NCBI GenBank assembly: GCA_964367095.1
Contig: CAYIXE010000001.1
Coordinates: forward strand, 2,803 to 66,802
DNA length: 64,000 nt
Source of the DNA: an uncultured Gammaproteobacteria bacterium
Lineage (GTDB): Bacteria > Patescibacteriota > Microgenomatia > UBA10105 > UBA927
Direction of reading: 5' to 3'
Positions 2,926-62,156 of the stretch are shown one piece after another. The position numbers and the translations under genes are program-made. The notes under the pieces are model-generated. The model was not told the origin of the DNA. It worked only from the letters and a program-made list of their open reading frames with translations, and did no database searches. Numbering within the stretch: position 1 is the first letter of the stretch; each line of letters begins with the position of its first letter.

Positions 2926-4035
2926 TCATTCGATTGATTCTAACAGTGTAAATGCTTCGTAATAATACTGCTCATATTCAAATTCTTCTGCAAAGAATTG
3001 CACGCCCTGTTGATATTGAGCGTATTGAGTTTGTATCTTTTTTAATGCAGTTGATAACTCTGATACACTCTCTATCACGAACCCTGCATGAAATTTACGT
3101 ATGAATGAAACGATGGCTGATGTATTCGTCATTATAACTGGCAGTCCCATTTCTATATATGTTTTTACCTTTCCAGGGTCAGTATAGTGTGTAGCAGTAT
3201 GTACGCCTTTTTCATACAGCGCGATTCCTACATGATGACGAATACTTAGTTTTTTGAGTTCTTCATCACTCACAAACGTGTTCGGGAACCAAACTCGATT
3301 TGAAATTTTATATTTCTTAATTAACAAAACATAGTTATCATATAGCGTCCTCTCGCATACACCAATAATTGATAACTCTACTTTCGAAGTATTTTTTATA
3401 AAAAGCAACAAATCCTCAATACCCTGAGAGGGACGGATCGCGCCTACAAATATTAATCTAAACGGAGATGTAATCGTTTTTGAAGGACCTGTATACGCTT
3501 TTACACCCCACATAACTGTTTTTTTATTCGGAAGACTAACGATCTTACCGTTATAAATACTATTTATTTTGTCACTTAAATAGTACGTAAAGGGTATTCG
3601 ATCATGGTAATATTTTTTCAGTTTTTCAAAAAGGATGAGTGACCAATGCACTGGAGGGTAATAATCTCCTATCCAGTATACATACTCCACTTTTCGCACG
3701 AGCTTGATAATACTCATGCCAAAGAATGCAATAGGATGGCCAGCCAAGATAAAAACATGTTCATTTCGAGAAAAATAGGTAAAGAGCGTCGTGGTATGGT
3801 GATAAAACCACAGAACATAATAGAGAAACAGGTTTGATGACGTCGAAATGATTCGTTTCTCTTGTACGTTTCCTTCTTTATACACCCAAAGCTCGTTTGA
3901 AATTCCACTCAACCTCGGCATAATGACATAAATGACCAGTTTTCTTGTGTGTTTGATAAAGTAATTCATCGTATTCCCGACGCTTTGCAGGCTTCCGTAC
4001 ATAAATATAGTGTCATAACGAAATATAGCTTTCAT
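2926..4035 (-). CDS. GT4 (GT-B fold) glycosyltransferase
   Basis: GT4-like C-terminal half (FVGAIRPSQGIEDLL...GLPVIMT). ATGA overlap with the gene at 4032. Confidence 0.65.
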   Translation of the reverse strand: MKAIFRYDTIFMYGSLQSVGNTMNYFIKHTRKLVIYVIMPRLSGISNELWVYKEGNVQEKRIISTSSNLFLYYVLWFYHHTTTLFTYFSRNEHVFILAGHPIAFFGMSIIKLVRKVEYVYWIGDYYPPVHWSLILFEKLKKYYHDRIPFTYYLSDKINSIYNGKIVSLPNKKTVMWGVKAYTGPSKTITSPFRLIFVGAIRPSQGIEDLLLFIKNTSKVELSIIGVCERTLYDNYVLLIKKYKISNRVWFPNTFVSDEELKKLSIRHHVGIALYEKGVHTATHYTDPGKVKTYIEMGLPVIMTNTSAIVSFIRKFHAGFVIESVSELSTALKKIQTQYAQYQQGVQFFAEEFEYEQYYYEAFTLLESIE

Positions 4036-4904
4036 TTCTTTTTAAGAATGCTGACAATATTGCTTGCTCCGTAAGAAAAACGACTAAAGTATTCATCTAC
4101 CTTTTCTCCCCTTTTGTCCCATCGCGAATCTTTCGTAAGCATTTTAAACGCTAAACAAACTATCTTTCCCAAACTCCCCGTATAATACGTCTTCATTTCT
4201 CTAAATCTACTGAAACCCACAAGAATTCGTTCCCTTGTATACCGGCGGAGATGACCAATCCTTCTATCGTGAATCATGTTTATCGGCCAAAGAAATGGCC
4301 AAACATATTTTAAATGAATGGGCATTGCAAGCATCAACAAAGCCTTATTCTTAAGCACACGCTCAATTTCTTTGATAGCTTTTTTTTCCTGCGGAAGGTG
4401 CTCTAATATTGCATTTGCCACCATCCCGTCAGCGCTTTTTGCTTTTATGGGTAACTCCTCGGAACTTGCACAGGTTAATAAAACATTTTTTTGTAATTTC
4501 AATTTTGCAATATTTACTCTAAGCTTGTGTAGTTCTGCAAACGTCAAGTCAGTTGCGATGACATGAAACCCACGTTTCGCTAACTCAATCGCCATATATC
4601 CACTTCCGGTCGCGTTATCTATGATAAGCCCCTTCGTCTGCACAGAGGAAGAAATAAAATTGTCTATATATCTTTTTTGCCATGGCTCCAATACGTATGA
4701 TTGTCGAGATAAATCTTCCTTTTCAAAATACTTCACCTGATTTTGTAAATGAGTAGGTAATGTGGAAAGATTAACAAGTATTGGTATTCCATTTACTATT
4801 GCATACTGCTTCTTACACTTTCGACAATATAAACTCTTTGATTCACTCACAAGCGAGTGTTTACATATTGGACAACAAAGGTATTTAAGCAAAAGATGAT
4901 TCAT
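4032..4904 (-). CDS. SAM-dependent methyltransferase with N-terminal Trm112-like zinc-ribbon
   Basis: N-terminus LKYLCCPICKHSL...YCRKCKKQYAIVNGIPILV (Trm112/DUF343-like CxxC...CxxC), followed by the class-I MTase motif IIDNATGSGYMAIELAKRGFHVIATDL. Confidence 0.7.
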   Translation of the reverse strand: MNHLLLKYLCCPICKHSLVSESKSLYCRKCKKQYAIVNGIPILVNLSTLPTHLQNQVKYFEKEDLSRQSYVLEPWQKRYIDNFISSSVQTKGLIIDNATGSGYMAIELAKRGFHVIATDLTFAELHKLRVNIAKLKLQKNVLLTCASSEELPIKAKSADGMVANAILEHLPQEKKAIKEIERVLKNKALLMLAMPIHLKYVWPFLWPINMIHDRRIGHLRRYTRERILVGFSRFREMKTYYTGSLGKIVCLAFKMLTKDSRWDKRGEKVDEYFSRFSYGASNIVSILKKK

Positions 4905-4975: not shown

Positions 4976-5025
4976 TTCTAATCGCATGTTGTTCTTTGCG
5001 TATCATTATGATACGCTAAACACAT

Positions 5026-6078
5026 ATGAATGATACGCAGATAAATTCAAGACAGCATAAATTGCTCAATTATCTTCTCATTAATTCTTTTTCTTCAAGA
5101 GCAGAGCTAACAAAAGCTATTGCAGATGAAAAAGGCTCCCGTATAACTATTATACGTGATTTAAACCACCTGCTGAATCTTGGTTGGATTGAGCAATCGG
5201 GAGGTGGAAAACATATAAAGTATAGCCTTAAAATGGGTAAGGAATTGCTTATCCCAGTTGATATTGAGGAATATTTTTTAAAAACTACTGATGCTAGAAA
5301 TATCACGTATCAGCATTTCAATTTTTCAGTAATTGATAATCTGTCTGGACTATTTTCAAAAGAAGAACTTAATCTTTTTGAACTGGGAAGAATAAAATTA
5401 CAGTATAAATTTACATCGCTGGATAAAACGCTGCTTAAACGAGAGCTCGAACGATTCACCATCGAACTCAGTTGGAAATCTTCTCAAATTGAAGGAAATA
5501 CCTATTCATTATTAGAAACTGAAGAGTTAATAAAGAATAAGAAAGAAGCAAAAGGTCATGACAAAAGTGAGGCGATCATGATTCTCAACCATAAAAATAC
5601 ATTTGATACCATACTTGAAAAAAAAGATGGCTTCAAAGAAATTACTGTTTCTGGTATCAGATCAATACATTCTGAACTTATACAAGATCTCAATGTGACT
5701 TCTGGCATCCGTGAGTCAGGAGTTGGCATCACCGGCACTAAGTATCTTCCTCTTGATAACAAATGGCAAATTGAAGAAGCTTTAACAAAAATCGTCGTGT
5801 GTGCAAAAAGGACCGATGCCATAGCTGAAAAGGCGTTAACTTTCCTTGCGATGATCGCGTATTTACAACCATTTACCGATGGAAACAAGCGAACATCGCG
5901 AATGATTAGTAACGCCATTTTGTTGGCTAACGGCTACTTCCCTCTCTCATACAGAAGCGTTGATGAAGTGGAATATAAAAAGGCTTTAATTCTTTTCTAC
6001 GAACAGAATAATATGTTTCACTTAAAAAGAATATTTCTAGAGCAGCAACAATTCGCTATGGATAATTACTTCCTATAA
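5026..6078 (+). CDS. Fic/Doc family protein with N-terminal winged-HTH-like region and a non-canonical active-site motif
   Basis: Fic-fold core. The motif position reads YLQPFTDGNKRTSRMI instead of HPFx(D/E)GNGRxxR: His is replaced by Gln and GNGR by GNKR (Doc-like NKR). N-terminus KLLNYLLINSFSSRAELTKAIADEKGSRITIIRDLNHLLNLGWIEQ looks like a wHTH. Confidence 0.7.
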   Translation: MNDTQINSRQHKLLNYLLINSFSSRAELTKAIADEKGSRITIIRDLNHLLNLGWIEQSGGGKHIKYSLKMGKELLIPVDIEEYFLKTTDARNITYQHFNFSVIDNLSGLFSKEELNLFELGRIKLQYKFTSLDKTLLKRELERFTIELSWKSSQIEGNTYSLLETEELIKNKKEAKGHDKSEAIMILNHKNTFDTILEKKDGFKEITVSGIRSIHSELIQDLNVTSGIRESGVGITGTKYLPLDNKWQIEEALTKIVVCAKRTDAIAEKALTFLAMIAYLQPFTDGNKRTSRMISNAILLANGYFPLSYRSVDEVEYKKALILFYEQNNMFHLKRIFLEQQQFAMDNYFL

Positions 6079-7251
6079 TGGAGAGATGGAGCTTGTAACA
6101 ATCAATATCTTCTCAAATATCGTTTGCCACGTAAATGTACGCGCTTGTTTTCTCGCTGCCTGCTTAGCTCTTGAGAGGTTCTTTGTATCGGAAAGAATAG
6201 CGACTATCGCACGTGCGATATCTTGATTATTATACGATACTACAAACGCACATCCTACTTTCTCAAGTGTCTTTGCATTGTATGAAACATCGGTCATAAG
6301 AATCGGAACACCGCAAGAAAGATATGTTTTTATTTTTGTCGGATCTGCATAGTAACTAAAATTTGTTGTATCTCTCCCGCTTGGCATATACGTAGCCAAA
6401 GCTATATCTGATTTTATAATTTCTTTTTGTATGGCTGCTTGGTCAGATTGCCATCCCATAAACTGCACATGTTTTTCTAAAGATAGCGATTCCACAAGTT
6501 CCCGAAGCGGCTGTTCATACTCTCCGCCACCTATAATCGTCAACGAAACACGCGGCAATTTTTTTAGTATAGCGGGCATTGCGCGAATAACCTCCTGAAC
6601 CCCTTGTTTTTCAAGCAAATGCCCAACAAAAATAAGTCGGTAATCATTTTTGACTTTTATCTTCTTTACAATATCTTTTTCCCAAACGCCGATTGGTACG
6701 ACTATTTGTTTATCCTTCGTAGTTTTGAGTCCTAAAAACTTTTTTCTCCCTTCTTCTATTCGTGGCGATACATTCCAACATATATCAGAGTATCTAACCG
6801 CGAAACACTCCATACTATGATAGATGTAATTAATCAGCCAAATATTACTTCGCTTTGGACTAAAATCAATCGCATAAAACACCACTTTATCGACAATTCC
6901 AAAAACGTGAAGCAGTACCCCGACACAGGCATTTAATGGATTAACGCCTATATAAAGGTAAGACGCTTTTGTTAATTTCACACATTCAATAATTGTCGCA
7001 AGTGCATCACGGAAAAATGCTGTTACCGATCCGGCAGACACTCGCTTCACGCTTTTTGTATGGATATTTCTTCCTTTTCTATACACACGTTGTGTGTACG
7101 TTGAATTCTCTGCAAGCAATGGATGACCGATGTATATCAGTGACTGTATTTTTTGAGAAATAAGATAATCACTAAGCGCTTCTGACGCACCATAAAAAAG
7201 CGTATGCGTCACTATGATGACCTGTTCGGGAGTGTTTAGGCGACTTTGCAT
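6073..7251 (-). CDS. GT4 (GT-B fold) glycosyltransferase
   Basis: GT4-like C-terminal domain ([20 protein letters not shown]...GVPILMTD). 392 aa. Confidence 0.7.
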
Positions 7252-21170: not shown

Positions 21171-22760
21171 TCACATCAAACAAGTCATTCTTCTTGCATA
21201 TTTACGATGAGCATAACGTACTTTGCGTATACCGAAAGCTAACAAAGAGAACAAACTGAGTAGTGATATCCCGTCGGCCAATAGCCGCAAGGGAGTCTCT
21301 TCAAATCTAACGATTAGTTGATGCTCTCCACTGGGCATATTCACATGGATAATACCGTCAGATTTATAGATGATAGTAGTTTCTTTACCGTCAACATACG
21401 CTTTCCACCCGGGAAAATAGAGTATATTCGCTGAGACAGTGCTTTCTGTTTTAGCATTGATAGTCATCTCATAGGAAAGTGGGGTCTCTTTGTACACATT
21501 TATAGCGGCATCCCCAGTGCTCGCTTGAAACCTTGTAGAAAACCGCTCTTTTTTCCATCCTGTCCATATTGTCGAGAAGCTATTACCTAAAGATGATGTG
21601 CCATCTGTAAATTCACGCCGAGAAAGGTAATGTGCATCATCCCGCTTTTCATACGTCACAGGCTTCATATATGAAAAACTTGCTATAAAAGCCAGAACGG
21701 TGAGCCCCACCATAATCCATCGTGGTGTCACAGTGGTAAGAAGCGCTCCAAGATACCCAGTGGCAATGGTGGTAACCACCAATAATCTCCATGGATACTG
21801 AATATTGCCCATAAGCGGCACGTATCGCCATAATGACAACGAGTACTCTGTCATACCAAAGATTGCAACCCCTACCACACAAAGAACGGGGAAAATTATC
21901 GCTCGTAATGCTTTCTTTCTCACTGCCGCAAAAAAACTGATACATACGATAAGAAGCGACACGATGCCAATTTGATACGACATCTCATCAGCGGTAATCC
22001 CTACACCCGAAAATCCCGTTCCCCACGATGGGAAGAGCAGCTGAAAAAGATCCGGAAAATGATCAGCATACGAAACACTATTTAAACCCACCATAAAACG
22101 GCTCTCAACGAGTGCCGGCAGCCAAAAATACGTTGCTAACCCAATTCCCGTAACAATTACTAAGATGTTGCCTCGTTTGCGATACCATGTATACAAAAAA
22201 ATAATTGGAATAAATATGAGCGCTGTAATATTGTGACTTACTATAATACCGGCTATCCCTATTGCTACACCAAAGGAAACACCATATTCTAACGCTGCAA
22301 GGGTTAACAACACAAAAGAAAGCGCCCACACCTCTCCTACTGATCCCCGTACATAAATATCCACAAACCAATACGGCACCATCGAACATATAATCGTACC
22401 TATAAGTGCTGGCTTTTTTCCAAACACTTTACGTAACCACAAAAAACACCAAAGTATAGCCGTAAGATACCCTGTAGCCAAGGTCAGCTTCACGCTGTCG
22501 ACAAACGTCGCGCCCAATGCATGGAATAAACTTCCTATATAGTTAGGGAATGGATAATGAAAAAGAAAAAGCGGTAAGCCGTATCCACTATTTAAATCAG
22601 GCGCCCATCGAGGAAATACATACCCTTGAGACAACATCTTATAAAACTGCCAGAAACGAATAATATGATACTCTCCGTCATGCGTCGGGATAAATCGAGC
22701 ACCAAAAAGCCATTGCGATGCAAATATTGCCGGAATAAGCGCGAGCAATAAAAATTTCAT
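21171..22760 (-). CDS. GT-C fold membrane glycosyltransferase, short YfhO-like paralog (1 of 5)
   Basis: About 12 TM. First-loop motif THDGEYHIIRFWQF...FPRWAPDLNSGYGLPLFLFHYP. C-terminal soluble domain with YFPGWKAYVDGKE...PSGEHQL. Confidence 0.5.
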   Translation of the reverse strand: MKFLLLALIPAIFASQWLFGARFIPTHDGEYHIIRFWQFYKMLSQGYVFPRWAPDLNSGYGLPLFLFHYPFPNYIGSLFHALGATFVDSVKLTLATGYLTAILWCFLWLRKVFGKKPALIGTIICSMVPYWFVDIYVRGSVGEVWALSFVLLTLAALEYGVSFGVAIGIAGIIVSHNITALIFIPIIFLYTWYRKRGNILVIVTGIGLATYFWLPALVESRFMVGLNSVSYADHFPDLFQLLFPSWGTGFSGVGITADEMSYQIGIVSLLIVCISFFAAVRKKALRAIIFPVLCVVGVAIFGMTEYSLSLWRYVPLMGNIQYPWRLLVVTTIATGYLGALLTTVTPRWIMVGLTVLAFIASFSYMKPVTYEKRDDAHYLSRREFTDGTSSLGNSFSTIWTGWKKERFSTRFQASTGDAAINVYKETPLSYEMTINAKTESTVSANILYFPGWKAYVDGKETTIIYKSDGIIHVNMPSGEHQLIVRFEETPLRLLADGISLLSLFSLLAFGIRKVRYAHRKYARRMTCLM

Positions 22761-23881
22761 CGTTTGTTCACAAAAATTTTATACCAAAAACTATAACAAG
22801 CCAACGGCATCCATGTCACAAAAAGCCGTATCATGGGTCCTGTGCCTCCATATTCTCTCGTCGCTATCCACGGCAAATACCGCAGCATTAATCCAAAGCT
22901 TAACATATACGCGGCTCCATGAATAAAGGATCTTTTGCCCATAGGCAACAGTGATACAAATACAAGAAACCATATGGCGTACCACGGATACATTTCTTCC
23001 CGAAGGGGGGTTAATAAAAAAACGCCAAACATACAAATTCCTACAAACAAAGCACGCTTTTCGTCTGATAAGTGACGAAAAAAAATAAAAAGCGGCAACA
23101 CCACTATAGTTGCTCCTTTCACCAATACCGAGGAGAGCATAAAACCCAATCCCATAATCCATACTGCTAACTGCGTATTACGCCAAAGATAAATTCCATA
23201 AAGAAGGAGAGCCATCATAAATGTATCATTATGGCCAGATACAAATGTCTCAATAATCACAAGCGGATTAAACGCAAAAAATAAGACGTTTCGCACGTTC
23301 TTTGTCATCCGATAAATAAGAACTCCTATCGCTACATACGAGCTGATTACCAACAATTTAAATGTGTACAACGCGACCAATACATTACCAAAAGAAAGTA
23401 CGTACGGAATCCACGTGGCAAGTATCCATATTGGCCCGTACAGTGCGAGTTTATTGGCGGCTCTGGTAAACCCAAGCATCGGCTCACCGAGAAATTCAGT
23501 CGGCATCACAAGATAGGGATTTTCGTGATAAAAAAATGCAACCTTTGCCGTAAGAATGTAGTTAAAAATGTCATGAGACAATGCAGGGTATGATAAGAAA
23601 AAGATACAACCTATCAATAACAAAAATTTCCAATATGTTTTTAGCGTTGGTAGCGTCTGTATCCTAATAATCAATGCATACAAGATAAACAAAATGAAAA
23701 CAAAAATTATATATATAATCGCGGCAACAATCGGCGTTTTATACACGATGTGAGTCAACGAATTGAGGACTGATAATGCCCACGGATGCGTCGAGATACT
23801 AAAATTTGGATCAACGAACCCAAATGAAAAAAGTGAAAATAAGAATCCGACTACTGCAAACCAAACAAGTATTGCTTTCAT
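22757..23881 (-). CDS. polytopic membrane protein, DUF2029/GT87-like putative GT-C glycosyltransferase
   Basis: SYPALSHDIFNYILTAKVAFFYHENPY motif, shared with the genes at 58659 and 31756. About 10 TM. ATGA overlap with the downstream gene. Confidence 0.4.
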   Translation of the reverse strand: MKAILVWFAVVGFLFSLFSFGFVDPNFSISTHPWALSVLNSLTHIVYKTPIVAAIIYIIFVFILFILYALIIRIQTLPTLKTYWKFLLLIGCIFFLSYPALSHDIFNYILTAKVAFFYHENPYLVMPTEFLGEPMLGFTRAANKLALYGPIWILATWIPYVLSFGNVLVALYTFKLLVISSYVAIGVLIYRMTKNVRNVLFFAFNPLVIIETFVSGHNDTFMMALLLYGIYLWRNTQLAVWIMGLGFMLSSVLVKGATIVVLPLFIFFRHLSDEKRALFVGICMFGVFLLTPLREEMYPWYAIWFLVFVSLLPMGKRSFIHGAAYMLSFGLMLRYLPWIATREYGGTGPMIRLFVTWMPLACYSFWYKIFVNKR

Positions 23882-23882
23882 A

Positions 23883-24416
23883 TTATGGATTCATACTATT
23901 CTCCCGTATATTTTGACGAAGCTTTATAGAAGCAGTCAACCGCTCATGAATGGATAACACCGTTGAGGAAATTTTTTCCGGTGTCCATATAAATTCTGGA
24001 GGCAATTCTCTATATAACTTTGTAAGTAACTTCTCGTGAGTGCTCATCTGTTCTTTTAATGATGCAACAACCAATGACATATTTTTCTTTTCCGCTTTTC
24101 CCGATTGAATACGTTCTGGTAGCTGAATAATTTCATTGTCAGAATGATTCAAGGCATCAAATGCCAATAAATATTGTTTGTACTCAAATAATATTTTCGC
24201 TTCAACCAGATATTTATCTGCCATGTTCATGATATGTTTTGCCTGCGCGATACTCCCAAAACTCCAATATCGTTTCACATGATCCAAGACGCGTGATACT
24301 CTATACATTTTATTTCCGGGCATAGCTGATGGATATGGGAGCACATATTCAGAAAATACAAGCGAAGGTGTGGAAAAAATTAAAGTCAAAAGAAAAAATG
24401 AAAGGAAATACTTCAT
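23883..24416 (-). CDS. secreted hypothetical protein with N-terminal signal peptide
   Basis: From the ATG at 24416: MKYFLSFFLLTLIFSTPSLVFSEY..., a signal-peptide-like N-terminus. No recognizable domain. The N-terminal extension in the track is probably untranslated. Confidence 0.45.
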   Translation of the reverse strand: MKYFLSFFLLTLIFSTPSLVFSEYVLPYPSAMPGNKMYRVSRVLDHVKRYWSFGSIAQAKHIMNMADKYLVEAKILFEYKQYLLAFDALNHSDNEIIQLPERIQSGKAEKKNMSLVVASLKEQMSTHEKLLTKLYRELPPEFIWTPEKISSTVLSIHERLTASIKLRQNIRENSMNP

Positions 24417-24417
24417 A

Positions 24418-25188
24418 TCACGATGCAGACATAAACTTTTTGTATGCCATAGGAAAATGGATGCTCGAGAATAGCGCAAACTGAAACCCCTGCCATCCGT
24501 CTACAAACCCCTTATGGCGAAGATAGATCGAAAAAAACGTACCAATCGGTTTGACCAAACAATACGATAAAAATAAATTAAACGTGGGTGTTTTATATAT
24601 CTTTCGCAAATCTAGAGCTGTAAGCGAGGTATACGTGTCTGCCTTTGCCCAGTATTCCTCAAGAGTATTGTTGGTGTAATGCAAAAGCGGTTCTTTAAGC
24701 GTTCCGATCTCTCCATCTATGACAATCTGTTCATGTACTGACTTGCAAGGTAACATGCCTTTACCCCTTTTAAACAATCGAACAAGATAGTCAGGATACT
24801 GTCCGCCTTTGGAAAGCCATTTGCCAATGAAGAAATTTTTGCGCGGCATTTGATACCCGGCATTTGTATTCTTTTTCTTTATTACTGACAGAATTTCGGC
24901 GCGAAGCTTTGGGCTTATGACTTCATCAGCGTCCAACTGCAATATCCAATCGCTCTTGCATGCATCTATGGCATACTGCTTATTGATATGAAACATCGCT
25001 GGATTATCTCGTTTAGAAATGTTCGCACCATACTTCTTTGCAATTTCAAGAGTTCCGTCAGTTGATCCGCCATCGACCAAGACTATTTCATCAACCCACG
25101 AAACTACAGAGGCTAAACATGCTTCTAATTTAATAACTTCGTTATATGTAGCAATTGCCACTGATAATGTTACCTTCTTTTTTGCCAT
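24418..25188 (-). CDS. GT2 glycosyltransferase (WaaE/KdtX-like)
   Basis: LSVAIATYNEVIKLEACL...IVLVDGGSTDGTLEIAKKYGA...LQLDADE. Confidence 0.7.
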   Translation of the reverse strand: MAKKKVTLSVAIATYNEVIKLEACLASVVSWVDEIVLVDGGSTDGTLEIAKKYGANISKRDNPAMFHINKQYAIDACKSDWILQLDADEVISPKLRAEILSVIKKKNTNAGYQMPRKNFFIGKWLSKGGQYPDYLVRLFKRGKGMLPCKSVHEQIVIDGEIGTLKEPLLHYTNNTLEEYWAKADTYTSLTALDLRKIYKTPTFNLFLSYCLVKPIGTFFSIYLRHKGFVDGWQGFQFALFSSIHFPMAYKKFMSAS

Positions 25189-26852
25189 AACCGCATTGTA
25201 ACAAGAAACCCCAAGAGTACAAAAATACCACCTATAGAAATCCAGTTAGAGAGTTTTCGAAACTTTGTATCGGAAAATATAATTTCAACATCATGCACTC
25301 CCTCGGGAACATCAAATGTTAACAGTCCTCGATAATTAGGGTTTTGAAATTCAATAGGAACGCGCGTTTTATCGACAAATACTTCCCAATTGGGAAAATA
25401 AAGCGTATTTTCGACAAATTTCATGGATGTTGATGAAGAAACAGCATATGAATGATATGTGCTATTTCTACGTCCGACTTCAATAGTCACATCCTTTCCA
25501 CTGATTAGCTCAATCGGCGCTTTGGCTCTCGTTTCCATAAAACGAATAGACCAAATCGGTGAACTTTCTCCTGTATCCGTAGTGCCGTTATAGACGCTGG
25601 TGAAATTACTGTCAGGCATCGATACATACTCTTTTGCGTGCCACATGGGAATGGTTCCGACAATTGCGATAGTACACAATAATCCCATCATCCATATCTT
25701 CTCTTTTTTAGAAACTATACTTATCCCAATAGCACCAACAATCGACGTTGCAAATACTGCAACACTCATCAGCCGCCAAGGAAATTGAAACTTTTGCAGA
25801 AGCGATATCGATTGCCAAACAGGCAACGCTGCATTGGTCATAAGGAAAAGTGAGAAAATAAATATGGCGACTGCCGCTATAGTGAATATCTGCATTTTTC
25901 GATTCGCTTTGGAAAACTTCACCAAGACCAATACCAACCCCAGAAGCTGTGCCACACCAAGGCTCTTACTAAACTCATTTCCACCCCCATAGTTCCACGC
26001 TGACCACAGAAACCACCGCAGCGGCACAAATCGAGTCTGAAAATCTCCGACGGTCACGATATCTCGAAGCGTATATTTCCCCTCAACAAATGCAGGTATC
26101 CAAAAAAATGCTGATAATATGAACCCAAGTGTAATACAGATAACGCTTGTGATGAAAAACCGACGTTTATCTTTTGACTCATAGACAAAAAGGTATAAAG
26201 CGTAGACACCTGCTATAGGCAAAAACATAATACTCAATGCATTATGTGAAAGAATTAATCCCGCCACACCCAACGCAACTATAACCTCCGCCTTTATTAT
26301 TCTCATATATCGATATATGAGAATTTTGGGAGTATCAAAAGATTGCTTAGCTAACATATAAAGTCCAAACATCACAAACGGTAAAAAAATAAAAGCCATA
26401 TGTTCCCCAATCGCCCCGCGAATATAGATATCGACAAACCGATAGGGAGCAAATCCATAAAGGATAGCCGCTGTAATCCCCGCTTCCATGCCCCATGCGG
26501 CATTAACCCACAGAAACATGGCAAACATGCTTGCAATAAACCCAAATGCAAAAACGAGCTTGACACTTTCTACCAATGAAAATCCAATCGTATGAAACGC
26601 TGACGCGATGTAGGATGGCAGCGGATACAAAAACATCATCACCGGATGCCCGTATCCCCAATTAAGGTTGCCAGCCCATCGCGGAACAAGGTTGCCTTCA
26701 GAAAGTGATTGATAGAAGTTGGCAATCCTTGCCACATGATCCTTACCATCATGCGTTATGGGCAATCCTGAGTTAAACAAGTCAAAAAGGGGCAAGATGG
26801 AAACAATAAGAAGTACGAACCAGATAACCAAGAGTGGAAGTAATCGCTTCAT
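25170..26852 (-). CDS. GT-C fold membrane glycosyltransferase, short YfhO-like paralog (2 of 5)
   Basis: ITHDGKDHVARIANFYQSL...VPRWAGNLNWGYGHPVMMFLYP. C-terminal YFPNWEVFVDKTRVPIEF...VPEGVHDVEIIF. Confidence 0.5.
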   Translation of the reverse strand: MKRLLPLLVIWFVLLIVSILPLFDLFNSGLPITHDGKDHVARIANFYQSLSEGNLVPRWAGNLNWGYGHPVMMFLYPLPSYIASAFHTIGFSLVESVKLVFAFGFIASMFAMFLWVNAAWGMEAGITAAILYGFAPYRFVDIYIRGAIGEHMAFIFLPFVMFGLYMLAKQSFDTPKILIYRYMRIIKAEVIVALGVAGLILSHNALSIMFLPIAGVYALYLFVYESKDKRRFFITSVICITLGFILSAFFWIPAFVEGKYTLRDIVTVGDFQTRFVPLRWFLWSAWNYGGGNEFSKSLGVAQLLGLVLVLVKFSKANRKMQIFTIAAVAIFIFSLFLMTNAALPVWQSISLLQKFQFPWRLMSVAVFATSIVGAIGISIVSKKEKIWMMGLLCTIAIVGTIPMWHAKEYVSMPDSNFTSVYNGTTDTGESSPIWSIRFMETRAKAPIELISGKDVTIEVGRRNSTYHSYAVSSSTSMKFVENTLYFPNWEVFVDKTRVPIEFQNPNYRGLLTFDVPEGVHDVEIIFSDTKFRKLSNWISIGGIFVLLGFLVTMRLWQKRR

Positions 26853-28492
26853 AACGTAAATGCAATAATTGCTTCTTTCCCGTCAAGATTCTTAAATATA
26901 TTTACCACGCGTTTTTGCGTAGGCGCATCTTTACTATCAGCAATATACAGCGTATCAGCTTTGAGCACTTCTGTAGACCAGTTTATTGAGCGAAATTCCA
27001 CATTCCCAAATCTATGCGGCTTGTCATATCCGCCTGACACACTGCCGCCGAGTGTTTGATAGAGGTTAGGATCAAACGATGAATAAAAAAGGTAAAACAT
27101 ATACGACTGGTACAAATTGCCGTTATTTGAAAAGACGATTTGTTTATATTCATTTTTCGTTCCCTGTACAAAAGCCATCGTATCTTCCATGGCATACTGA
27201 AACGAATCTGATTGTGTACGAGGAAACGTTATAAAATACCCTTTTCCAAACTGCATGAGGCTTAATAAAATAATTCCTCCTACGATAATCCATCGCGTCC
27301 ACGTAAATTTTCTTGCGACATACCATAATTCCAACACGCCGACCCCGCTTAATAACGCCAATGGAGGAAGCCATGTAAAGCTGCGCATTGCGTGTGGCGC
27401 TTGGGTTGTAATCGCGGCGGGCAATGGGCCTGAAAGTCCCCACACCAATAAAAAAAGCAGTACACGAAAATCTATATTACTAAAAACAATAAGATAAATA
27501 AGCCCCACAAGTATACTTACCAATTCCCATGAATACAAAAGGCCCATATTCGGTACTTTGTGTGCTTCCCGTTCGCTTCCCATAAATAACCATGATGGGA
27601 CAAAGTGAGAAAAGTAATTACTGGCAAAAACTCGTGCCATAACTACTTTACGATTATGTATTATCTTTCCTATAACGTCGTTAGAACTTTTTGCAATTTG
27701 TAAGGCTTGAAACGCTTGTGTATACACTGGGGCATCGACAGAGAATGCACTCGTACCTTTAAGCCTGCTCAATCCCTCACCGGTAACCGTTACATACACA
27801 GCAGGAAGTACAATAAGAAGAAATACACCTGCTGATATACACACCACTTTTATATGTTTTACGCATTCTTTCCAATACATTGCGCCAAATGCTATAAGAA
27901 GAATTGGAGTGATGAGTTTTTGGCTTTGATACCCATGAAGTGAGACGCCAAACAATATTGATGCCCACAAAAGATACCATTGTTTTTTTTCTATAATAAA
28001 CACACACAGTGCGTACACTCCCGCAAGCGTTAACGTAAATCCTAAATTCGCTTCATGTCCTAAACGGGAAATGTAAATATGCCACGGCGATATTGCCATA
28101 AGAAACGATACTGCCTCACCTAAATATCGTAATCGGCTGTTATACCGCGAAAAAAGCTTACCGAGACAAAACATCAGATACACAGCAAAAAGCGACAAAA
28201 TTATAGATGGAAATCGAACAGCTAAAGATGAAAGACCCATAAATTTTACAAACGGGATGACAATGTATACGTACATCGAAGGACGCCAATCATCATACGC
28301 GCGAAGAAGAAGCGGCAATCTATACCCGTATTCATCTTTGCCCGTCGTAAGTATGGAATATGCGTTATAGCCGATGGAAACTTCGTCAAGAGAAGGTGAA
28401 GGCGGCACAATAGCCAATGCATATAGCCGCAAAAATGCTGAAAGAAGTAAAATGAACGTGAAACCTAAATATGTACGATTAAACATAGACAT
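26849..28492 (-). CDS. PMT_2 / GT39-GT83-like (ArnT/PMT family) GT-C glycosyltransferase (1 of 5)
   Basis: PSLDEVSIGYNAYSILTTGKDEYGYRLPLLLRAYDDWRP...VRFPS, with the first-loop DE motif and a DDW/DDY second motif. About 11 TM plus a C-terminal soluble domain. Confidence 0.65.
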   Translation of the reverse strand: MSMFNRTYLGFTFILLLSAFLRLYALAIVPPSPSLDEVSIGYNAYSILTTGKDEYGYRLPLLLRAYDDWRPSMYVYIVIPFVKFMGLSSLAVRFPSIILSLFAVYLMFCLGKLFSRYNSRLRYLGEAVSFLMAISPWHIYISRLGHEANLGFTLTLAGVYALCVFIIEKKQWYLLWASILFGVSLHGYQSQKLITPILLIAFGAMYWKECVKHIKVVCISAGVFLLIVLPAVYVTVTGEGLSRLKGTSAFSVDAPVYTQAFQALQIAKSSNDVIGKIIHNRKVVMARVFASNYFSHFVPSWLFMGSEREAHKVPNMGLLYSWELVSILVGLIYLIVFSNIDFRVLLFLLVWGLSGPLPAAITTQAPHAMRSFTWLPPLALLSGVGVLELWYVARKFTWTRWIIVGGIILLSLMQFGKGYFITFPRTQSDSFQYAMEDTMAFVQGTKNEYKQIVFSNNGNLYQSYMFYLFYSSFDPNLYQTLGGSVSGGYDKPHRFGNVEFRSINWSTEVLKADTLYIADSKDAPTQKRVVNIFKNLDGKEAIIAFTL

Positions 28493-28497
28493 GCCTT

Positions 28498-30159
28498 TTA
28501 CTCTGCAATTCGTATCGCCTCAAATCCATTAAGAAATGAAATTCTGTATATGGGATCTGTACTAATTTCCCGCGGTGTTCCTACATACAAAATTGAACCG
28601 TCGTGCAATTCATTAGGCCAGTTAATAGGCCGAAATTCATACACATCAAATTTATTTCTCACCTCAGCAAATCCACCCGACGCTGTACCGCCTCCAGCTA
28701 GATATAATCTGGGATCATATTTCATAAAAAATAAATAGAACATGTGCGGTTGTTCTAATTTCGTAGACACAACTATCTTCTTATACTTTGATTTATGCGC
28801 CTCTGTATACTCGACTGCTTGTTTGTATCCATATTGCCAAAATTGTGAATACTCAATATTCATGTGCGAATAGTACATATGAAAGTAATAGCCGATGTTA
28901 CATATTGCAGCAACAAAACTAGAAACGATAATGACGAACACAACGAGTCTCATTTGTTTTGTGACATGCTTAATCGTTTCTTTTCCATACATATACGCGC
29001 TGTATAAACCAAAGGCAGTAAAAACCTGAAGTAGCGGCAATGTGACAAGAGTTCTTATCGCGTGAGGAGTTTCAGACGTGGGAGATGCAGCGATGGGGGC
29101 TAAAAGAAGCCAGCCAAAAAGCAAATTTCGTATAACCCCTCCGCGCTTTATCACCACTACCATGCCCCACAATAAAAATGGCAGCTCCCAAAGGTACAAA
29201 AGTCCCGTATCAGGCGCATGATGTCTATCGTTGTCCCCGCTTAAAAACAACCATTTGAGAGAAAAGTGCGACAAATATCCTTCTGCAATTGTTTTTATAT
29301 AGACGATTCTTCTGTTCTCCCAAATTAATCCCATCAGATTTCCGTTTTGTAGATCATCCTCTAACTTTGATACGCTTTTAGCGAGTAACCCCGTCTGATC
29401 AGAGAGACTGCTAGTGCCTTTGAGCCGCGTAAGTCCGTCTTTTCCAAAAACGACGGGTAATAATGGACCGACGATAATAATTCCTATAAATATCGATACC
29501 AATACATATTTCCACTTTGAAAGAAATTTCTTAAAAAACACTATGAATGCCAAAAGTATAAGAAGTGGTATAAATACGCGCTGACTATGATACGCGTAAA
29601 ATCCTAAGCCCAAAATAAGCGCCGATACCGGCATATATTTTCCGTTTGTCAAAGACTTCAGAAGAAAATAAAGACCCCAAATATTCAGCGTTACCCCAAT
29701 ATTAGCTTCAAATGCAATGCGCGAAAATTGCAAATGCCACGGGGAAATTGCCAACAAAAACATAACCATAAACGGCAAAACGGCAGTAATATCTGTGTAT
29801 TTTCTTTTTTGTGTCTCAATAAGACTTAAAAGTGCGACCGTAAGAAAATATGCGCCTATAACACCCAACACGCCATTTATAGCTGCCGGTAGACGAACAC
29901 TATACGTAGACAATCCCAAATACTTCACCGTTGGGATCGCAAGATATGCATAAAGCGGCGGTTTATAATCATCAAATGATCGAAGTGCCAGGGGCCACCG
30001 CGTCCCGTACTCATCTTTGCCAGTTTTAAGCAACGAATATGCGTTGTATCCTAACGCCGCTTCATCCCAATCAGGGCTTGGCGGCACGACGCCTAACTGC
30101 CAAAACCGTAGTATTGCGGCAAGTATGACAATTGATATAAGTATTAATGTTTTTTTCAT
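28498..30159 (-). CDS. PMT_2 / GT39-like GT-C glycosyltransferase (2 of 5)
   Basis: PSPDWDEAALGYNAYSLLKTGKDEYGTRWPLALRSFDDYKP...VRLPAA. Confidence 0.65.
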   Translation of the reverse strand: MKKTLILISIVILAAILRFWQLGVVPPSPDWDEAALGYNAYSLLKTGKDEYGTRWPLALRSFDDYKPPLYAYLAIPTVKYLGLSTYSVRLPAAINGVLGVIGAYFLTVALLSLIETQKRKYTDITAVLPFMVMFLLAISPWHLQFSRIAFEANIGVTLNIWGLYFLLKSLTNGKYMPVSALILGLGFYAYHSQRVFIPLLILLAFIVFFKKFLSKWKYVLVSIFIGIIIVGPLLPVVFGKDGLTRLKGTSSLSDQTGLLAKSVSKLEDDLQNGNLMGLIWENRRIVYIKTIAEGYLSHFSLKWLFLSGDNDRHHAPDTGLLYLWELPFLLWGMVVVIKRGGVIRNLLFGWLLLAPIAASPTSETPHAIRTLVTLPLLQVFTAFGLYSAYMYGKETIKHVTKQMRLVVFVIIVSSFVAAICNIGYYFHMYYSHMNIEYSQFWQYGYKQAVEYTEAHKSKYKKIVVSTKLEQPHMFYLFFMKYDPRLYLAGGGTASGGFAEVRNKFDVYEFRPINWPNELHDGSILYVGTPREISTDPIYRISFLNGFEAIRIAE

Positions 30160-30161
30160 GG

Positions 30162-31787
30162 TTACAACTCAAATATCACAAGCCCGATAAAGCCATTTAA
30201 TAGCGGAATGTTTTTTAAAACCTTTGCGTTCTGCGGGACTTCGTTTACCGGAAGTATATAGAGCACGCGACCCTCATACTTCTCATTGACGTGTCGCACA
30301 AATCGATATTTGCCAAACCGATAAACATTATAAAATCCCTCTTTATCAAACGAGGCATTTTTGGTCGTTTGAAAAAATGAAAGATCATACTTTCCATAAA
30401 ACAAAGTATAAATATATGGTCTCCCGATACTCTCAGTTAGAACAATAACGTCGTAATCATCCTTCACACTCTCGGCATATTGAATTGCCTCACGGTATCC
30501 ATACTGCCATTCGCCAGAATATTCTTTTTTATAATGTGTCGTATACGTATGCCAAAAATAACCAAAGTTTCCAAGCACTAAAAGAACCATGACAATACCA
30601 ACCAATAACCGCAGTTTTTTGCCAACAAACACACCCAAAAACTGTACGCATCCATATGCCGTGACGATGATCCATACCGGTAAACCGTTTTCCACCCGAA
30701 GCGCATGAGGCGTCTCACGAGCAACCGCTGCGGGCGCTATGGAGGCTAAAAGCCAAAATAGAAGCAATCCCGCTATTTTCGTCTGTCGCGAAAATAGTGT
30801 TAACCATCCGATAAAAACAAACGGAGCTGTGACAAGGAGTAACTGTCCTATATCCTGGGTAGAAAATTTCGGATTCCCGTCGCCCTTTATAAAAAGAAAC
30901 CGCGGCTCGAGATTATCAAAAAAATGCAGCAAATATTCCCTTCCGTATCCAATTCTACGATTATGAACAATTTTGGACCACCAGGCGTTGCTGTCTGCCA
31001 AGCTTCTGACATTTGAAATTAATACCGTTTCAAGATTTGTAAATATACTCACCTCCTGGAACCGAAGTCTGGCTTCTTTCGAAACAAGGTGAGGCATAAG
31101 CGGCAGTAAAGCAATTACAGCGATAATCAATCCTTTATAAAAAGAAGTTTTCGCTTTCGAAATTGCATTCCACGAAAAAACCAACACTCCAAAAGCGATA
31201 AGAGGTCCTGCATATCGTGCTGAATTAAACGTATACATGCCTAAGACAAATGGTAAAAATGCGAAGGGCAATACGCTTGAATTCTTTCGTGAAACTAATA
31301 GAAGATACACGCCAAGTGAAATAAAAAATGTAGCAATATTTGCTTCAAATCCAGCTCGAGAGAGCATAATGTGCCACGGAGAGATAGCCAAAAATAAGGC
31401 GCTTGTCAGCGCAAGTCTTTGATTGGAAAACAACTCCTTCACAAGAAAATAGATAAGTAACACCGTCAGTATTCCAAAAATAGCCGATGGCAACCGAACT
31501 GCCAAATCAGATAAACCAAAAATTGCGATAAAAGGTATAGTAAGATAAATAGGAAGTGATGGTTTGTAATCACCAAATGCGGCAAAGGCACCCAAGGGAA
31601 ACCGTACACCATGCTCATCAGTGCCACTTGTTAAAATAGTATACGCGTTGTAGCCTATAGATACTTCATCCCACGAAAGCGCTGGCGGATTAGAGGTAAG
31701 ATTTGTAAGTCTAAACCATACTGCAAAAACAACAATAATTCCCAATAGAATAGAGCTAACTTTCATATTTTTCCAAAATTTTTTCAT
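30162..31787 (-). CDS. PMT_2 / GT39-like GT-C glycosyltransferase (3 of 5)
   Basis: PPALSWDEVSIGYNAYTILTSGTDEHGVRFPL...FGDYKP...VRLPSA. Confidence 0.65.
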   Translation of the reverse strand: MKKFWKNMKVSSILLGIIVVFAVWFRLTNLTSNPPALSWDEVSIGYNAYTILTSGTDEHGVRFPLGAFAAFGDYKPSLPIYLTIPFIAIFGLSDLAVRLPSAIFGILTVLLIYFLVKELFSNQRLALTSALFLAISPWHIMLSRAGFEANIATFFISLGVYLLLVSRKNSSVLPFAFLPFVLGMYTFNSARYAGPLIAFGVLVFSWNAISKAKTSFYKGLIIAVIALLPLMPHLVSKEARLRFQEVSIFTNLETVLISNVRSLADSNAWWSKIVHNRRIGYGREYLLHFFDNLEPRFLFIKGDGNPKFSTQDIGQLLLVTAPFVFIGWLTLFSRQTKIAGLLLFWLLASIAPAAVARETPHALRVENGLPVWIIVTAYGCVQFLGVFVGKKLRLLVGIVMVLLVLGNFGYFWHTYTTHYKKEYSGEWQYGYREAIQYAESVKDDYDVIVLTESIGRPYIYTLFYGKYDLSFFQTTKNASFDKEGFYNVYRFGKYRFVRHVNEKYEGRVLYILPVNEVPQNAKVLKNIPLLNGFIGLVIFEL

Positions 31788-33030
31788 TCATAAATAATAT
31801 TCCTGCTGTCAAAAAAATAAGTGATATATATCCTATATGACTATTATTAAAATATCGACTCATATACCAAAACAATGTAAGAAATGTTCCGTAGGTGAAT
31901 AACACAGTAGATAACAAAGGTCTTTTTATAATCCACCGAAGAAGAATTACCATAAGAGGCAATCCAAATAGAAGTTGATACAGATAAAAAAGATAGAACT
32001 CATGTATATTTTTAATAACTCCGGCGCTTAAAAGCACCATGCTTAATCCGTATCCTGATATAGGATAGCTTGCCGCAGTACCTCCGGTAAGATACAAGAA
32101 TACGCTATCGATATACGCCTTTGAATCCCACAAAAGAAATGGAAGCGTTAGGCCCAAACAAACAAGGAAGGTAATGATTACTGACCACCACATGCGACTT
32201 TTGCGTTTGACCTCTGTGACAAAAAGATACATAAAATAAAACGGCACAGCTATCCAAATCGTTTGCTTGCTCATGACGGCCAAACCAAAAATAAATCCAG
32301 CAATCAAAGGCTTTTTTAGTGATAACAGATAGAGAGAAAGGATCAACCAGAAAAATGCAAACACATCGCTTCTTCCCTCAATAAAATAATCAAATACTGA
32401 CGGTGAAAGAGAAACGAGTACTACTGCCAATCGCCGTAAATTCTGGTCCTTTATCCACTTCCAAAGTATAAACAAAATTCCTGCCATACTAAATAAAAGT
32501 GCCATGCGGGCATCAAAAAATCCAAACACTTTCACTCCTACTACATAAAATCCAAAGGGAAACAAAAGATACCAAGGAGGCATCACAAAGTGATAGAGCG
32601 CAGGATTGACGGCGTCAGGATTATCAGGCTCATCGTAATTAAATGATTCAACTGGTGTGCCAAAATACGTCTCTTTGTACGGATTTTTTCCGTTTATCAA
32701 ATACCGCATGGCAGCTTCTTGTTGCAAGATAATATCATGTACTCCCCACACAGGCGCTACGCTTTTGCGATCAACCATGGAAGTTATCAAAGTTAAGAAC
32801 ACAACGACAAAAATCACAAACCATGTCAAAATATCACGCCATCGTTCGACTAAAAGACTTACTTTTGTAAGAATCATTGATCGGTACGCGAGTAAAACAT
32901 TGAGGACCAACGAAAGAAACACTAATCCAAACAACCAATATGGTGTTCCCTCAATCGGAAGGATACGATACTTCATGACCACGGGAATGGAAAGCAGGAA
33001 AAGAAGCACGCTGTCAATAATTGGCGACAT
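31756..33030 (-). CDS. polytopic membrane protein, DUF2029/GT87-like putative GT-C glycosyltransferase
   Basis: VHDIILQQEAAMRYLINGKNPY motif (D...A...G.NPY class, shared with 22757 and 58659). Start trimmed to the ATG at 33030. Confidence 0.4.
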   Translation of the reverse strand: MSPIIDSVLLFLLSIPVVMKYRILPIEGTPYWLFGLVFLSLVLNVLLAYRSMILTKVSLLVERWRDILTWFVIFVVVFLTLITSMVDRKSVAPVWGVHDIILQQEAAMRYLINGKNPYKETYFGTPVESFNYDEPDNPDAVNPALYHFVMPPWYLLFPFGFYVVGVKVFGFFDARMALLFSMAGILFILWKWIKDQNLRRLAVVLVSLSPSVFDYFIEGRSDVFAFFWLILSLYLLSLKKPLIAGFIFGLAVMSKQTIWIAVPFYFMYLFVTEVKRKSRMWWSVIITFLVCLGLTLPFLLWDSKAYIDSVFLYLTGGTAASYPISGYGLSMVLLSAGVIKNIHEFYLFYLYQLLFGLPLMVILLRWIIKRPLLSTVLFTYGTFLTLFWYMSRYFNNSHIGYISLIFLTAGILFMNEKILEKYES

Positions 33031-33037
33031 AATAGGT

Positions 33038-53188: not shown

Positions 53189-53915
53189 ACTGTAAATTTT
53201 TCCAGGGACGCGTCATAAACAGACGGTACAAACCCTTAAGATCGCCGAATGCAGTTTTTAGAACTCGTACTGTGGACCCAGGATTATCTACCCACCGAAC
53301 CGGTTCTTCATAAATGCGTATCCCGCTTTTTTCGGCAAGAACAAGTAATTCTGTATCAAAAAACCACTCGTTATCTCTAATTCTTGGAAGAATTGTGCGG
53401 GCAATCGTCGAGGACATGGCTTTAAATCCACACTGTGCATCCGAAAAATTAACAAAAAAGAATAGTTTAATGAGGATAATATACATTTTTGATGTAATAG
53501 TTCGAAGCGCTGATCTGCCGTACACAAGTGATCCAGCCGCATTTCGCGTCCCGATTGAGATGTCGTATCCTCGGGAAAGCGAATGAATCAGAGCTGGTAA
53601 ATGCCTAAGATCGCTTGATAAATCAATATCCATATAACAAACAAATCGTGCCGTGCTTTGAAGCCAGGCTTTTTTCACTGCTCGGCCTCTTCCTTTTTCT
53701 TTAAGGTGAATGCTTGAGACGATGGCGTATTTTTTTGTCATCGCATTGGCTATTTCATACGTTTTATCGGTTGATGCATTATCAGCAATTACGATTGTTG
53801 TTTTATACTCTTTAAGATGTGTGGTAACAAAAAAGACAAGCGTCTCCACACTTGAAGAAAGATCCTCTTCTTCGTTGTACACCGGCAATATTATGTCAAG
53901 CGTTATTTTTTTCAT
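53175..53915 (-). CDS. GT2 polyprenyl-phosphate sugar synthase-like (DPM1-like)
   Basis: LDIILPVYNEEEDL...IVIADNASTDKTYEIA...KGRGRAVKKAW. Confidence 0.65.
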   Translation of the reverse strand: MKKITLDIILPVYNEEEDLSSSVETLVFFVTTHLKEYKTTIVIADNASTDKTYEIANAMTKKYAIVSSIHLKEKGRGRAVKKAWLQSTARFVCYMDIDLSSDLRHLPALIHSLSRGYDISIGTRNAAGSLVYGRSALRTITSKMYIILIKLFFFVNFSDAQCGFKAMSSTIARTILPRIRDNEWFFDTELLVLAEKSGIRIYEEPVRWVDNPGSTVRVLKTAFGDLKGLYRLFMTRPWKNLQYDRH

Positions 53916-58621: not shown

Positions 58622-58658
58622 AGCCTCATTATATAAAATAAGAGACAACACAAGCAAA

Positions 58659-59807: not shown

Positions 59808-59824
59808 AATTTTATAATTTGGGC

Positions 59825-62148: not shown

Positions 62149-62156
62149 GAAAAATA

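Follow-up and report, generated by a model that had tools for sequence, protein, structure and literature searches.

A class II Fic protein with an invariant glutamine in place of the catalytic histidine, fused to an N-terminal winged helix and preceded by an operator-like palindrome

The window analyzed here, a stretch of 64,000 nucleotides, comes from an uncultured bacterium placed by GTDB in the Patescibacteriota (contig CAYIXE010000001.1), and the subject of this work is the open reading frame (ORF) located at 5026-6078 on its plus strand. This gene, which runs from an ATG to the TAA stop codon at 6076-6078, encodes a 350-residue protein of the Fic family that displays a glutamine where the catalytic histidine is expected. 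An earlier note on the same DNA had pointed out this replacement and had proposed a pseudo-enzyme, an altered chemistry or a regulatory or antitoxin-like role. The glutamine turns out to be the trait of a large family, whose members combine a class II Fic domain with a winged helix and whose genes often carry an operator-like palindrome at their start. The features of the coding region are the following.

5026-6078, plus strand: ORF of 350 residues with a winged helix, a helical linker, an inhibitory motif and a Gln-type Fic domain (ORF call, Pfam, FICD alignment, model)
5026-5250, plus strand: N-terminal winged-helix DNA-binding domain, residues 1-75
5140-5178, plus strand: predicted recognition helix, residues 39-51, RITIIRDLNHLLN (model; residues 39-40 covary with the half-site described below)
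5479-5499, plus strand: inhibitory-helix motif S-S-Q-I-E-G-N, residues 152-158, of the class II (S/T)xxxE(G/N) type (FICD alignment)
5710-5751, plus strand: flap region R229-P242, RESGVGITGTKYLP (aligns with the G-x-F-R flap region of FICD; conservation)
5866-5901, plus strand: Fic signature Q281-P-F-T-D-G-N-K-R-T-S-R292, in which Gln stands in place of His and Lys in place of the second Gly (FICD alignment)
6073-6078, no strand assigned: convergent overlap of the stop regions of the Fic gene and a glycosyltransferase gene (ORF calls, sequence reading)

The protein has the Fic fold of the Fic/Fido superfamily and matches the Pfam family Fic (PF02661) over residues 206-299, with an E-value of 1.2e-11 and 45.8 bits against a cutoff of 24. 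When PDB chains were searched with phmmer, human FICD ranked first (E = 1e-9), YLQPFTDGNKRTSRM being aligned with YIHPFIDGNGRTSRL. In this alignment Q281, whose codon is CAA (5866-5868), falls on the catalytic His363 of FICD (QPFTDGNKRTSR versus HPFIDGNGRTSR), and K288 occupies the second-Gly position of the anion-binding loop. The Fic signature HxFx(D/E)GN(G/K)RxxR is consequently retained at its F, D, G, N, K, R and R positions and has lost its catalytic His. A register error in the reading of the motif is ruled out by this alignment, and the description of a 350-residue Fic protein with Gln at the catalytic position holds. In canonical Fic enzymes, the motif Asp and Asn are involved in metal and phosphate binding. 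Two conserved histidines, H189 and H215, match positions that are conserved in Fic domains generally, according to the FICD alignment. Judging from the sequence, canonical AMPylation is unlikely because the motif His is missing.

The region corresponding to the flap, which is the target-docking hairpin of Fic proteins, is well preserved, as is the inhibitory motif. The segment SSQIEGN aligns with TVAIEGN of FICD, E156 being equivalent to E234 of FICD. An inhibitory (S/T)xxxE(G/N) motif thus lies on the N-terminal side of the Fic core, within one and the same chain, as in the class II proteins of the classification of Engel et al. (2012). In that class, the inhibitory Glu pairs with the second motif Arg and prevents ATP from binding productively; the two residues of this pair, E156 and R292, are both present. 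In the AlphaFold2 model, built from 36 homologues with a mean predicted local distance difference test (pLDDT) score of 84.7, the inhibitory motif (residues 152-160, 5479-5505) is the least confident part, with pLDDT <50, and no helix is predicted for it. Such a low confidence may reflect a mobile regulatory element or a shallow alignment. By fold and sequence, the domain is that of a class II Fic protein, like SoFic, FICD and CccR, and not a Doc-like one; this assignment is new here. The earlier note had considered the NKR variant as Doc-like, and the Doc-type Lys in GN(K)R is indeed present, but it is the only Doc-like trait. The last motif Arg and the intramolecular inhibitory Glu are kept, unlike in Doc, and the Doc toxin model TIGR01550 (DOC_P1) scored below its cutoff for the window protein. 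Together with the Gln at the His position and the class II features, this rules out that the protein belongs to Doc.

The conservation of the glutamine was assessed in the 120 closest database proteins, in 87 homologous loci and in 86 diverse representatives reaching down to ~33% identity. The 120 closest proteins share 59-89% identity, are nearly all 350 residues long and come mostly from Patescibacteria. The glutamine noticed by the earlier note recurs in 119 of them, the remaining one having a Leu, in all 86 representatives and in all 87 loci, where the Lys and the inhibitory motif are likewise present without exception. At the codon level, it is encoded by CAA in 51 loci and by CAG in 36 and never gives way to a His codon, although the latter is one transversion away. 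Among the 86 representatives, D285, N287, K288, R289, R292, H215, R229 and P242 are 100% conserved as well, E156, G157, F283 and E326 are 99% conserved, and the flap residues Y240 and V233 reach 97% and 95%, respectively. As every other active-site element is as strictly conserved as the Gln itself, simple decay appears improbable, and the sequence data indicate that the Gln is a family trait under selection rather than a product of chance.

The family is also large. An exhaustive search of 1.84 billion cluster representatives returned 1027 clusters at E < 1e-10, including 194 with E < 1e-30. Among the best 150 matches, nearly all of the full-length proteins, down to ~33% identity, display Q[PA]FxDGNKRT[SAG]R and SSxIEGN. 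At least 595 encoding genomes were found when one genome per species was scanned; those listed include many classes of Patescibacteria, Bacteroidota (Alistipes, Bacteroidaceae and others), Gastranaerophilales and a Lachnospiraceae. Some members are borne by plasmids of Bacteroides, Rhodobacterales, Rhizobium and others, and further ones occur in a human-gut phage contig and in a Helicobacter prophage. In these phage and prophage members, the Fic part, as annotated or detected, seems to be devoid of the winged helix. Matches to phrog_11900 (E = 1.7e-31) and to PADLOC PDC-S04 (2e-14) were also obtained.

One could argue that the His-to-Gln change marks a decaying relic, that is, a Fic gene becoming a functionless pseudogene, all the more as some metagenomic copies are truncated or internally deleted. 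Against this, the full-length 350-residue architecture is kept from 89% to ~33% identity across several phyla, and the Gln is invariant in spite of synonymous codon turnover, as are the other motif residues. The conservation data refute such a relic, which we find scarcely credible at all, and the family-wide conservation with turnover of the Gln codon equally rules out a one-off degenerate copy. The window gene is almost certainly a bona fide functional member of a Gln-type clade.

The N-terminus, which the earlier note had described as winged-helix-like, is a true winged helix, and this too is new here. Residues 1-75 are modelled by AlphaFold2 as helix-helix-helix-strand-strand, and a profile built from 42 N-terminal domains of the family matches BlaI (E = 1.9e-4), ArgR, AspA, MarR-type proteins and Fur, and more weakly the winged helix-turn-helix (wHTH) at the C-terminus of CbFic2 (E = 0.019). 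Taken individually, 22 of the 42 domains match Penicillinase_R or HTH_DeoR in Pfam.

The presence of such a domain draws attention to the DNA around the start codon, where the following elements are found.

4989-4994, plus strand: -35-like hexamer TTGTTC, 17 nucleotides upstream of the -10-like element, weak and putative (sequence reading)
4998-5016, no strand assigned: perfect 9-1-9 palindrome GCGTATCAT-T-ATGATACGC, candidate operator to which the encoded winged helix would bind (sequence; 49/87 loci)
5009-5017, plus strand: putative extended -10-like element TGATACGCT, within the right arm (sequence reading)
5030-5038, plus strand: third half-site ATGATACGC, which repeats the right arm in direct orientation, 22 bp downstream of it, over codons 2-5 (N-D-T-Q)

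The combination of an inverted repeat with a direct third half-site, also new here, was found at 49 of the 87 homologous loci, versus a mean of 3.8 and a maximum of 6 in shuffled sequences, and in ~40 of these 49 the third half-site lies exactly 22 bp away, about two helical turns. The layout is conserved across the loci, whereas the half-site sequence is not. Depending on the subclade, it reads TGATACGC, TGATACGA, GATACGC, GAGACGAT, GATACAAT, GCTACAAT, GTCCCGAT (Bacteroidota) or TGAGCC(A/G)T. Where the arm reads GAGACG instead of GATACG, codon 3 is GAG (Glu) instead of GAT (Asp). As this codon switches with the upstream arms, the near-invariance of N2-D3-T4 is, at least partly, a constraint acting at the DNA level. 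The protein follows the half-site as well, since residues 39-40, at the start of the predicted recognition helix, are R/K-I/V with GATAC, K-A with GAGAC and K-P with mixed sites. An I or a V occupies position 40 in 17 of the 19 GATAC-only loci and in 1 of the 15 GAGAC-containing ones (Fisher p = 1.6e-6, uncorrected for phylogeny).

These repeats could in principle act as RNA. The left arm would then have two possible pairing partners, the right arm and the third copy in codons 2-5, and alternative hairpins would control translation initiation. A hairpin between 4995-5006 and 5030-5041 is indeed predicted (-15 kcal/mol, z = -1.97), and arm complementarity is kept across homologues. However, the arm mismatches are not of the wobble-compatible kind, G:T accounting for 4 of 51, and this rarity argues against selection on an RNA stem and fits DNA. 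Moreover, the 22-bp spacing is fixed, the half-site tracks residues of the recognition helix, and transcription directed by the likely -10 element, which is internal to the palindrome, would not include the left arm. Control at the RNA level is thus quite improbable.

Since the -10-like element sits in the right arm just before the ATG at 5026, the mRNA is probably leaderless or nearly so, as far as the sequence can tell. In other subclades, the half-site equivalent to this element reads TGATACAAT and is located 9-10 nucleotides before the ATG. The right arm itself contains an ATG that opens a mini-ORF at 5008-5019, ATG ATA CGC TAA (M-I-R-stop). At six homologous loci (L020, L022, L031, L035, L044 and L050), this right-arm ATG is in frame with the main ORF, which may explain the 356-residue variants found in databases.

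The palindrome is tightly associated with the gene. The exact half-site 9-mer is clustered here in the window, and its only other copy, ATGATACGC at 29587-29595, is isolated, not palindromic and probably due to chance. In metagenomes, 51 stretches contain the exact 19-bp palindrome, and 40 of these place it next to an intact or decayed copy of the Fic gene. In 32 of the 51 it precedes an intact Gln-type Fic ORF, the ATG lying 9 nucleotides downstream in 31 and 3 nucleotides downstream in one, and in 8 it precedes a truncated or internally deleted remnant (L094, L096, L108, L111, L113, L126, L129 and L135). The 11 unrelated occurrences seem compatible, by our estimate, with the chance level for 18 specified bases in such a collection. 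The metagenomic remnants are truncated, frameshifted or internally deleted; in L111 and L135, N-terminal codons are joined almost directly to a C-terminal ...EQQ(Q/R)FAI(D/E)NYFL. These palindrome-linked remnants show the recurrent decay of an accessory gene. No exact palindrome was found in viral contigs. We also considered that the repeats could be the ends of a mobile element and rejected it, no copy being present on the 3' side of the gene. Altogether, autoregulation of the gene through the palindrome is quite likely.

We then turn to the genomic context of the 87 loci. When three neighbours on each side were compared all-against-all, ORFs shorter than 70 residues being left unscored, no neighbour cluster extended beyond 5 loci. 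Small ORFs that would have escaped scoring have little space available, the upstream gap having a median of 149 bp. A conserved partner, antitoxin or operon was accordingly rejected, as no neighbour family is shared across the loci, and this absence points to a single-gene module without a separate antitoxin. The regulatory part of the role evoked by the earlier note is concretely supported by the operator-like palindrome at 4998-5016, which that note had not noticed, but its antitoxin-like part finds no conserved partner gene to rely on. Individual neighbourhoods are diverse: a radical S-adenosylmethionine (SAM)/methyltransferase region at L002, and PadR, GIY-YIG and HNH genes at L009 and L010. 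At L008 (3466-8203), the Fic gene is flanked by a replication-relaxation-like ORF and by an 864-residue ORF with a Walker A motif, TraG/VirD4-like by eye, and inspection suggests that the gene is carried there on a mobile element.

A decoy or antitoxin function deserves attention at this point. A Fic domain devoid of the His could neutralize a canonical Fic toxin, either by means of Fic-Fic contacts or by supplying its inhibitory Glu in trans. There is a precedent for Fic-Fic neutralization, Fic1 of Campylobacter fetus neutralizing Fic2 (PMC5651007), and a canonical His-type Fic gene is present within 5 kb at 5 of the 87 loci (L011, L035, L075, L077 and L081). At L011 it is the divergent neighbour of the Gln-type gene and encodes, at 3929-4801, a His-type protein with HPFNDGNGR and an inhibitory motif of its own. 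The other 82 loci, however, have no second Fic gene nearby; this includes the window, none being found in its 64 kb. No partner of any kind is conserved, and the inhibitory motif is in the same chain, beside its own active site. The decoy function is therefore very improbable.

The reading that we favour, with a slight lean only, is that of a stand-alone, self-repressing and self-inhibited Fic effector with a non-canonical chemistry. The winged helix, probably as a dimer, would bind the palindrome at 4998-5016 and the phased third half-site at 5030-5038. Once occupied, these sites would span the gene's own -10 region, its transcription start and its first codons, leading to self-repression. 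In the protein, the intramolecular inhibitory helix carrying SSQIEGN and E156 would hold the active site closed, as it does in class II Fic enzymes. This active site is that of a class II Fic domain in which the general-base His has been replaced by an invariant Gln and the second Gly of GNGR by an invariant Doc-type Lys, the rest of the site being conserved. The Fic domain would constitute the payload, a toxin- or defence-like effector that binds a nucleotide or another phosphate donor and docks its target on the flap. Indeed, with an operator found only at the gene's own start, a gene that travels alone and prophage relatives that appear to do without the winged helix, the Fic domain is the most plausible output, with the winged helix and the inhibitory helix as two layers of its self-control. 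The varied and partly mobile-element-like neighbourhoods, the members on plasmids and prophages, and the matches to the PADLOC models SoFic and PDC-S04 and to phrog_11900 also speak for a payload. The retained Asp, Asn, Lys-Arg pair, second Arg, inhibitory Glu and flap point to a regulated binding of a phosphate donor and to the docking of a target strand. With no base available, the domain would have to use an acceptor that needs no deprotonation or is already deprotonated, to perform a hydrolysis assisted by Glu156, or to act non-covalently through tight binding of its target.

The main rival of this effector is a pseudoenzyme sensor, that is, an ordinary transcription factor whose Fic domain, dead for catalysis, would bind a nucleotide or another ligand, or dimerize, and thereby tune DNA binding by the winged helix. 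The missing base, together with phosphate-binding residues, inhibitory Glu and second Arg that are all kept, fits nucleotide binding without turnover, and both the winged helix and the operator are well supported. On the other hand, the operator is essentially found at the gene's own start only, and a sensor that regulates itself alone has no output. The protein-docking flap is conserved as strongly as the nucleotide site, and the family has the patchy distribution of an accessory gene, with members on plasmids and in prophages and with decayed copies. The DNA-binding domain seems to be missing from the phage and prophage members, so that the Fic part would work alone. We thus consider the sensor unlikely, although it has to be kept in mind.

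Several points weigh against the effector that we propose. To our knowledge, the His is required in every characterized Fic or Doc enzyme, which makes a non-catalytic role a serious alternative. No substitute general base was identified, with the model geometry not inspected and the region of the inhibitory motif of low confidence, and a literature search returned no biochemical activity reported for any Gln-type Fic protein. Concerning the operator, the promoter elements are weak and a sigma-70 consensus scan reported no promoter upstream of the ATG, the covariation statistics between helix and half-site ignore phylogeny, and pairing of the left arm with the third half-site into an RNA hairpin (z ~ -2) is thermodynamically possible. 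The operator search within the window spans 64 kb of the genome, and further copies forming a regulon may exist. The balance tips slightly away from a catalytically active Fic domain and towards a pure binding module. A bolder hypothesis, which we regard as doubtful, would be that Gln-type Fic domains are active enzymes with a chemistry new to the superfamily. They would catalyze either a base-independent nucleotidyl or phosphoryl transfer to an anionic acceptor, such as a phosphate, a carboxylate or a nucleic-acid end, or a Glu-driven hydrolysis removing modifications. A single polypeptide would then gather a repressor, a built-in antitoxin, namely the inhibitory helix, and a toxin, forming a toxin-antitoxin or defence module made of one gene, which would be widespread in Patescibacteria and Bacteroidota.

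The immediate surroundings of the gene are of a different nature. On its 3' side, a group 1 glycosyltransferase ORF (Pfam Glycos_transf_1) lies on the minus strand at 6073-7251, its stop codon occupying 6073-6075 in reverse complement. As the earlier note had it, the two ORFs overlap tail to tail, by 6 nucleotides, and the only terminator-like site given by a terminator scan, 6205-6220, is beyond this overlap. The flanking minus-strand genes encode sugar-nucleotide epimerases and dehydratases, glycosyltransferases, a methyltransferase and an aminotransferase and form a glycan biosynthesis cluster. The divergent upstream neighbour, at 4032-4904 on the minus strand, encodes a class I SAM methyltransferase whose N-terminal segment is a zinc ribbon of the Trm112p-like type (Pfam PF03966, E = 3e-7). 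At locus L001, a methyltransferase likewise occupies the equivalent position, and the Fic gene is antisense between it and a glycosyltransferase, as in the window. A functional link to the glycan operon is not supported, the placement being different at loci other than L001, and no sign of foreign composition was detected, the GC content of the Fic gene being 34.9% versus 34-40% in its flanks. The statement of the earlier note that this is the only plus-strand gene of the first 34 kb stands for credible ORFs of at least 150 residues, up to ~34.4 kb. Another plus-strand ORF, at 32657-33256 (GTG start, 199 residues), lies wholly within two overlapping minus-strand ORFs and is probably spurious. 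Further along, long runs of co-oriented minus-strand ORFs of ~480-560 residues each, resembling tandem paralogues, are seen at 21171-34531 and 51746-62235, and PMT_2-type glycosyltransferases are found in such co-oriented runs at L001.

What would be the significance of such proteins? The mechanistic understanding of Fic and Doc proteins rests wholly on the motif His acting as a general base or acid. A family in which an invariant Gln replaces it, while the other active-site elements, the inhibitory Glu and the flap are kept, raises the question of what a His-less Fic site does, and does so in hundreds of species, including small Patescibacteria genomes and gut Bacteroidota, as well as on plasmids and in prophages. 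If these proteins are true enzymes, the reaction repertoire of the superfamily grows; if they are true pseudoenzymes, they clearly exemplify the recruitment of a toxin fold as a sensor domain. Either way, the labels 'protein adenylyltransferase' and 'Doc toxin' are unsuitable for such genes. The predicted operator at 4998-5038, with its natural specificity variants and the matching residues of the recognition helix, provides an experimental handle. The additions made here are the reassignment to class II, the fusion to a winged helix, the size of the family and an operator with protein-DNA covariation, the last of which makes the system directly testable.

Among known systems, a parallel can be drawn with Doc from the phd-doc module of phage P1, which shares with the window protein the Lys in place of the second Gly of the anion-binding loop (NKR). 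Doc is a small single-domain protein that keeps the catalytic His in its signature HxFx(D/N)(A/G)NKR, is devoid of the last Arg and of an intramolecular inhibitory helix, and is neutralized by a separate antitoxin, Phd. No Phd-like neighbour is conserved in the 87 loci. The closest protein of solved structure, by sequence, is human FICD (HYPE), with ~20% identity; its TVAIEGN and Fic motifs align residue by residue with those of the window protein. FICD differs by its tetratricopeptide repeats, its membrane anchor and its His363, which serves both AMPylation and deAMPylation.

The His-to-Gln change is not peculiar to the window gene. It defines a large and old clade that is already in the literature, Khater and Mohanty (2015, Sci Rep 5:10804; PMC4454073) having described in silico a Fic/Doc clade D2 with the consensus Qx[F/Y]x[D/E][G/V]NKR, comprising 45 sequences, all bacterial. 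They argued that selection on D2 implies a function other than canonical AMPylation, described its members as 'usually single-domain' and placed them in the Doc clade. The window motif QPFTDGNKR agrees with this consensus, which is found throughout the family, and the [G/V] variation is shared too, as illustrated by QAFADVNKR in Sulfitobacter among the more distant relatives. The common motif and the bacterial distribution therefore suggest that the window protein is a member of D2. A literature search for characterized Gln-type Fic proteins returned nothing beyond this in silico report. By comparison with the published clade, the family extends here from 45 sequences to the 194 clusters and the species-representative genomes counted above, and instead of single-domain Doc proteins it is composed of class II proteins with an N-terminal winged helix and an intramolecular inhibitory motif.

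Finally, the fusion of a Fic domain to a DNA-binding domain has counterparts. SoFic from Shewanella oneidensis (PDB 3eqx/3zcn) and CbFic2 from Coxiella possess the canonical HPFxDGNGR, a C-terminal wHTH and a demonstrated AMPylation/deAMPylation activity. SoFic binds 100 bp upstream of its own start codon and AMPylates and deAMPylates EF-Tu (bioRxiv 10.64898/2026.07.09.737422), and the activity of CbFic2 is switched by DNA binding (PMC10628234). The PADLOC model of SoFic, a single-gene defence system, matches residues 145-305 of the window protein over model positions 57-218 of 361 (E 2e-16), that is, over the Fic core only and without the C-terminal wHTH, which falls short of a full-length match. 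CccR from Yersinia pseudotuberculosis (PDB 7xux), which AMPylates FtsZ, is a repressor of its own promoter and acts there by way of inverted repeats located at the -35 and -10 boxes (PMC9755527). It is a type VI secretion system effector with the canonical His and GNGR, a helix-turn-helix at its C-terminus and half-sites 26 bp apart, whereas the window protein has an N-terminal winged helix, a compact 9-1-9 palindrome with a third half-site, and a Gln/Lys active site. The domain order is thus reversed relative to both CccR and SoFic. The footprinted half-site of CccR, ATGATAATCT (PMC9755527), shares ATGATA with the half-site at 5008-5016 of the window (ATGATACGC or ATGATACAAT). The DNA-binding domain of the window protein and those of the CccR/CbFic2 type may be homologous despite their swapped position. 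By analogy, the window protein would obey the same self-repression logic that has been experimentally shown for CccR and suggested for SoFic.

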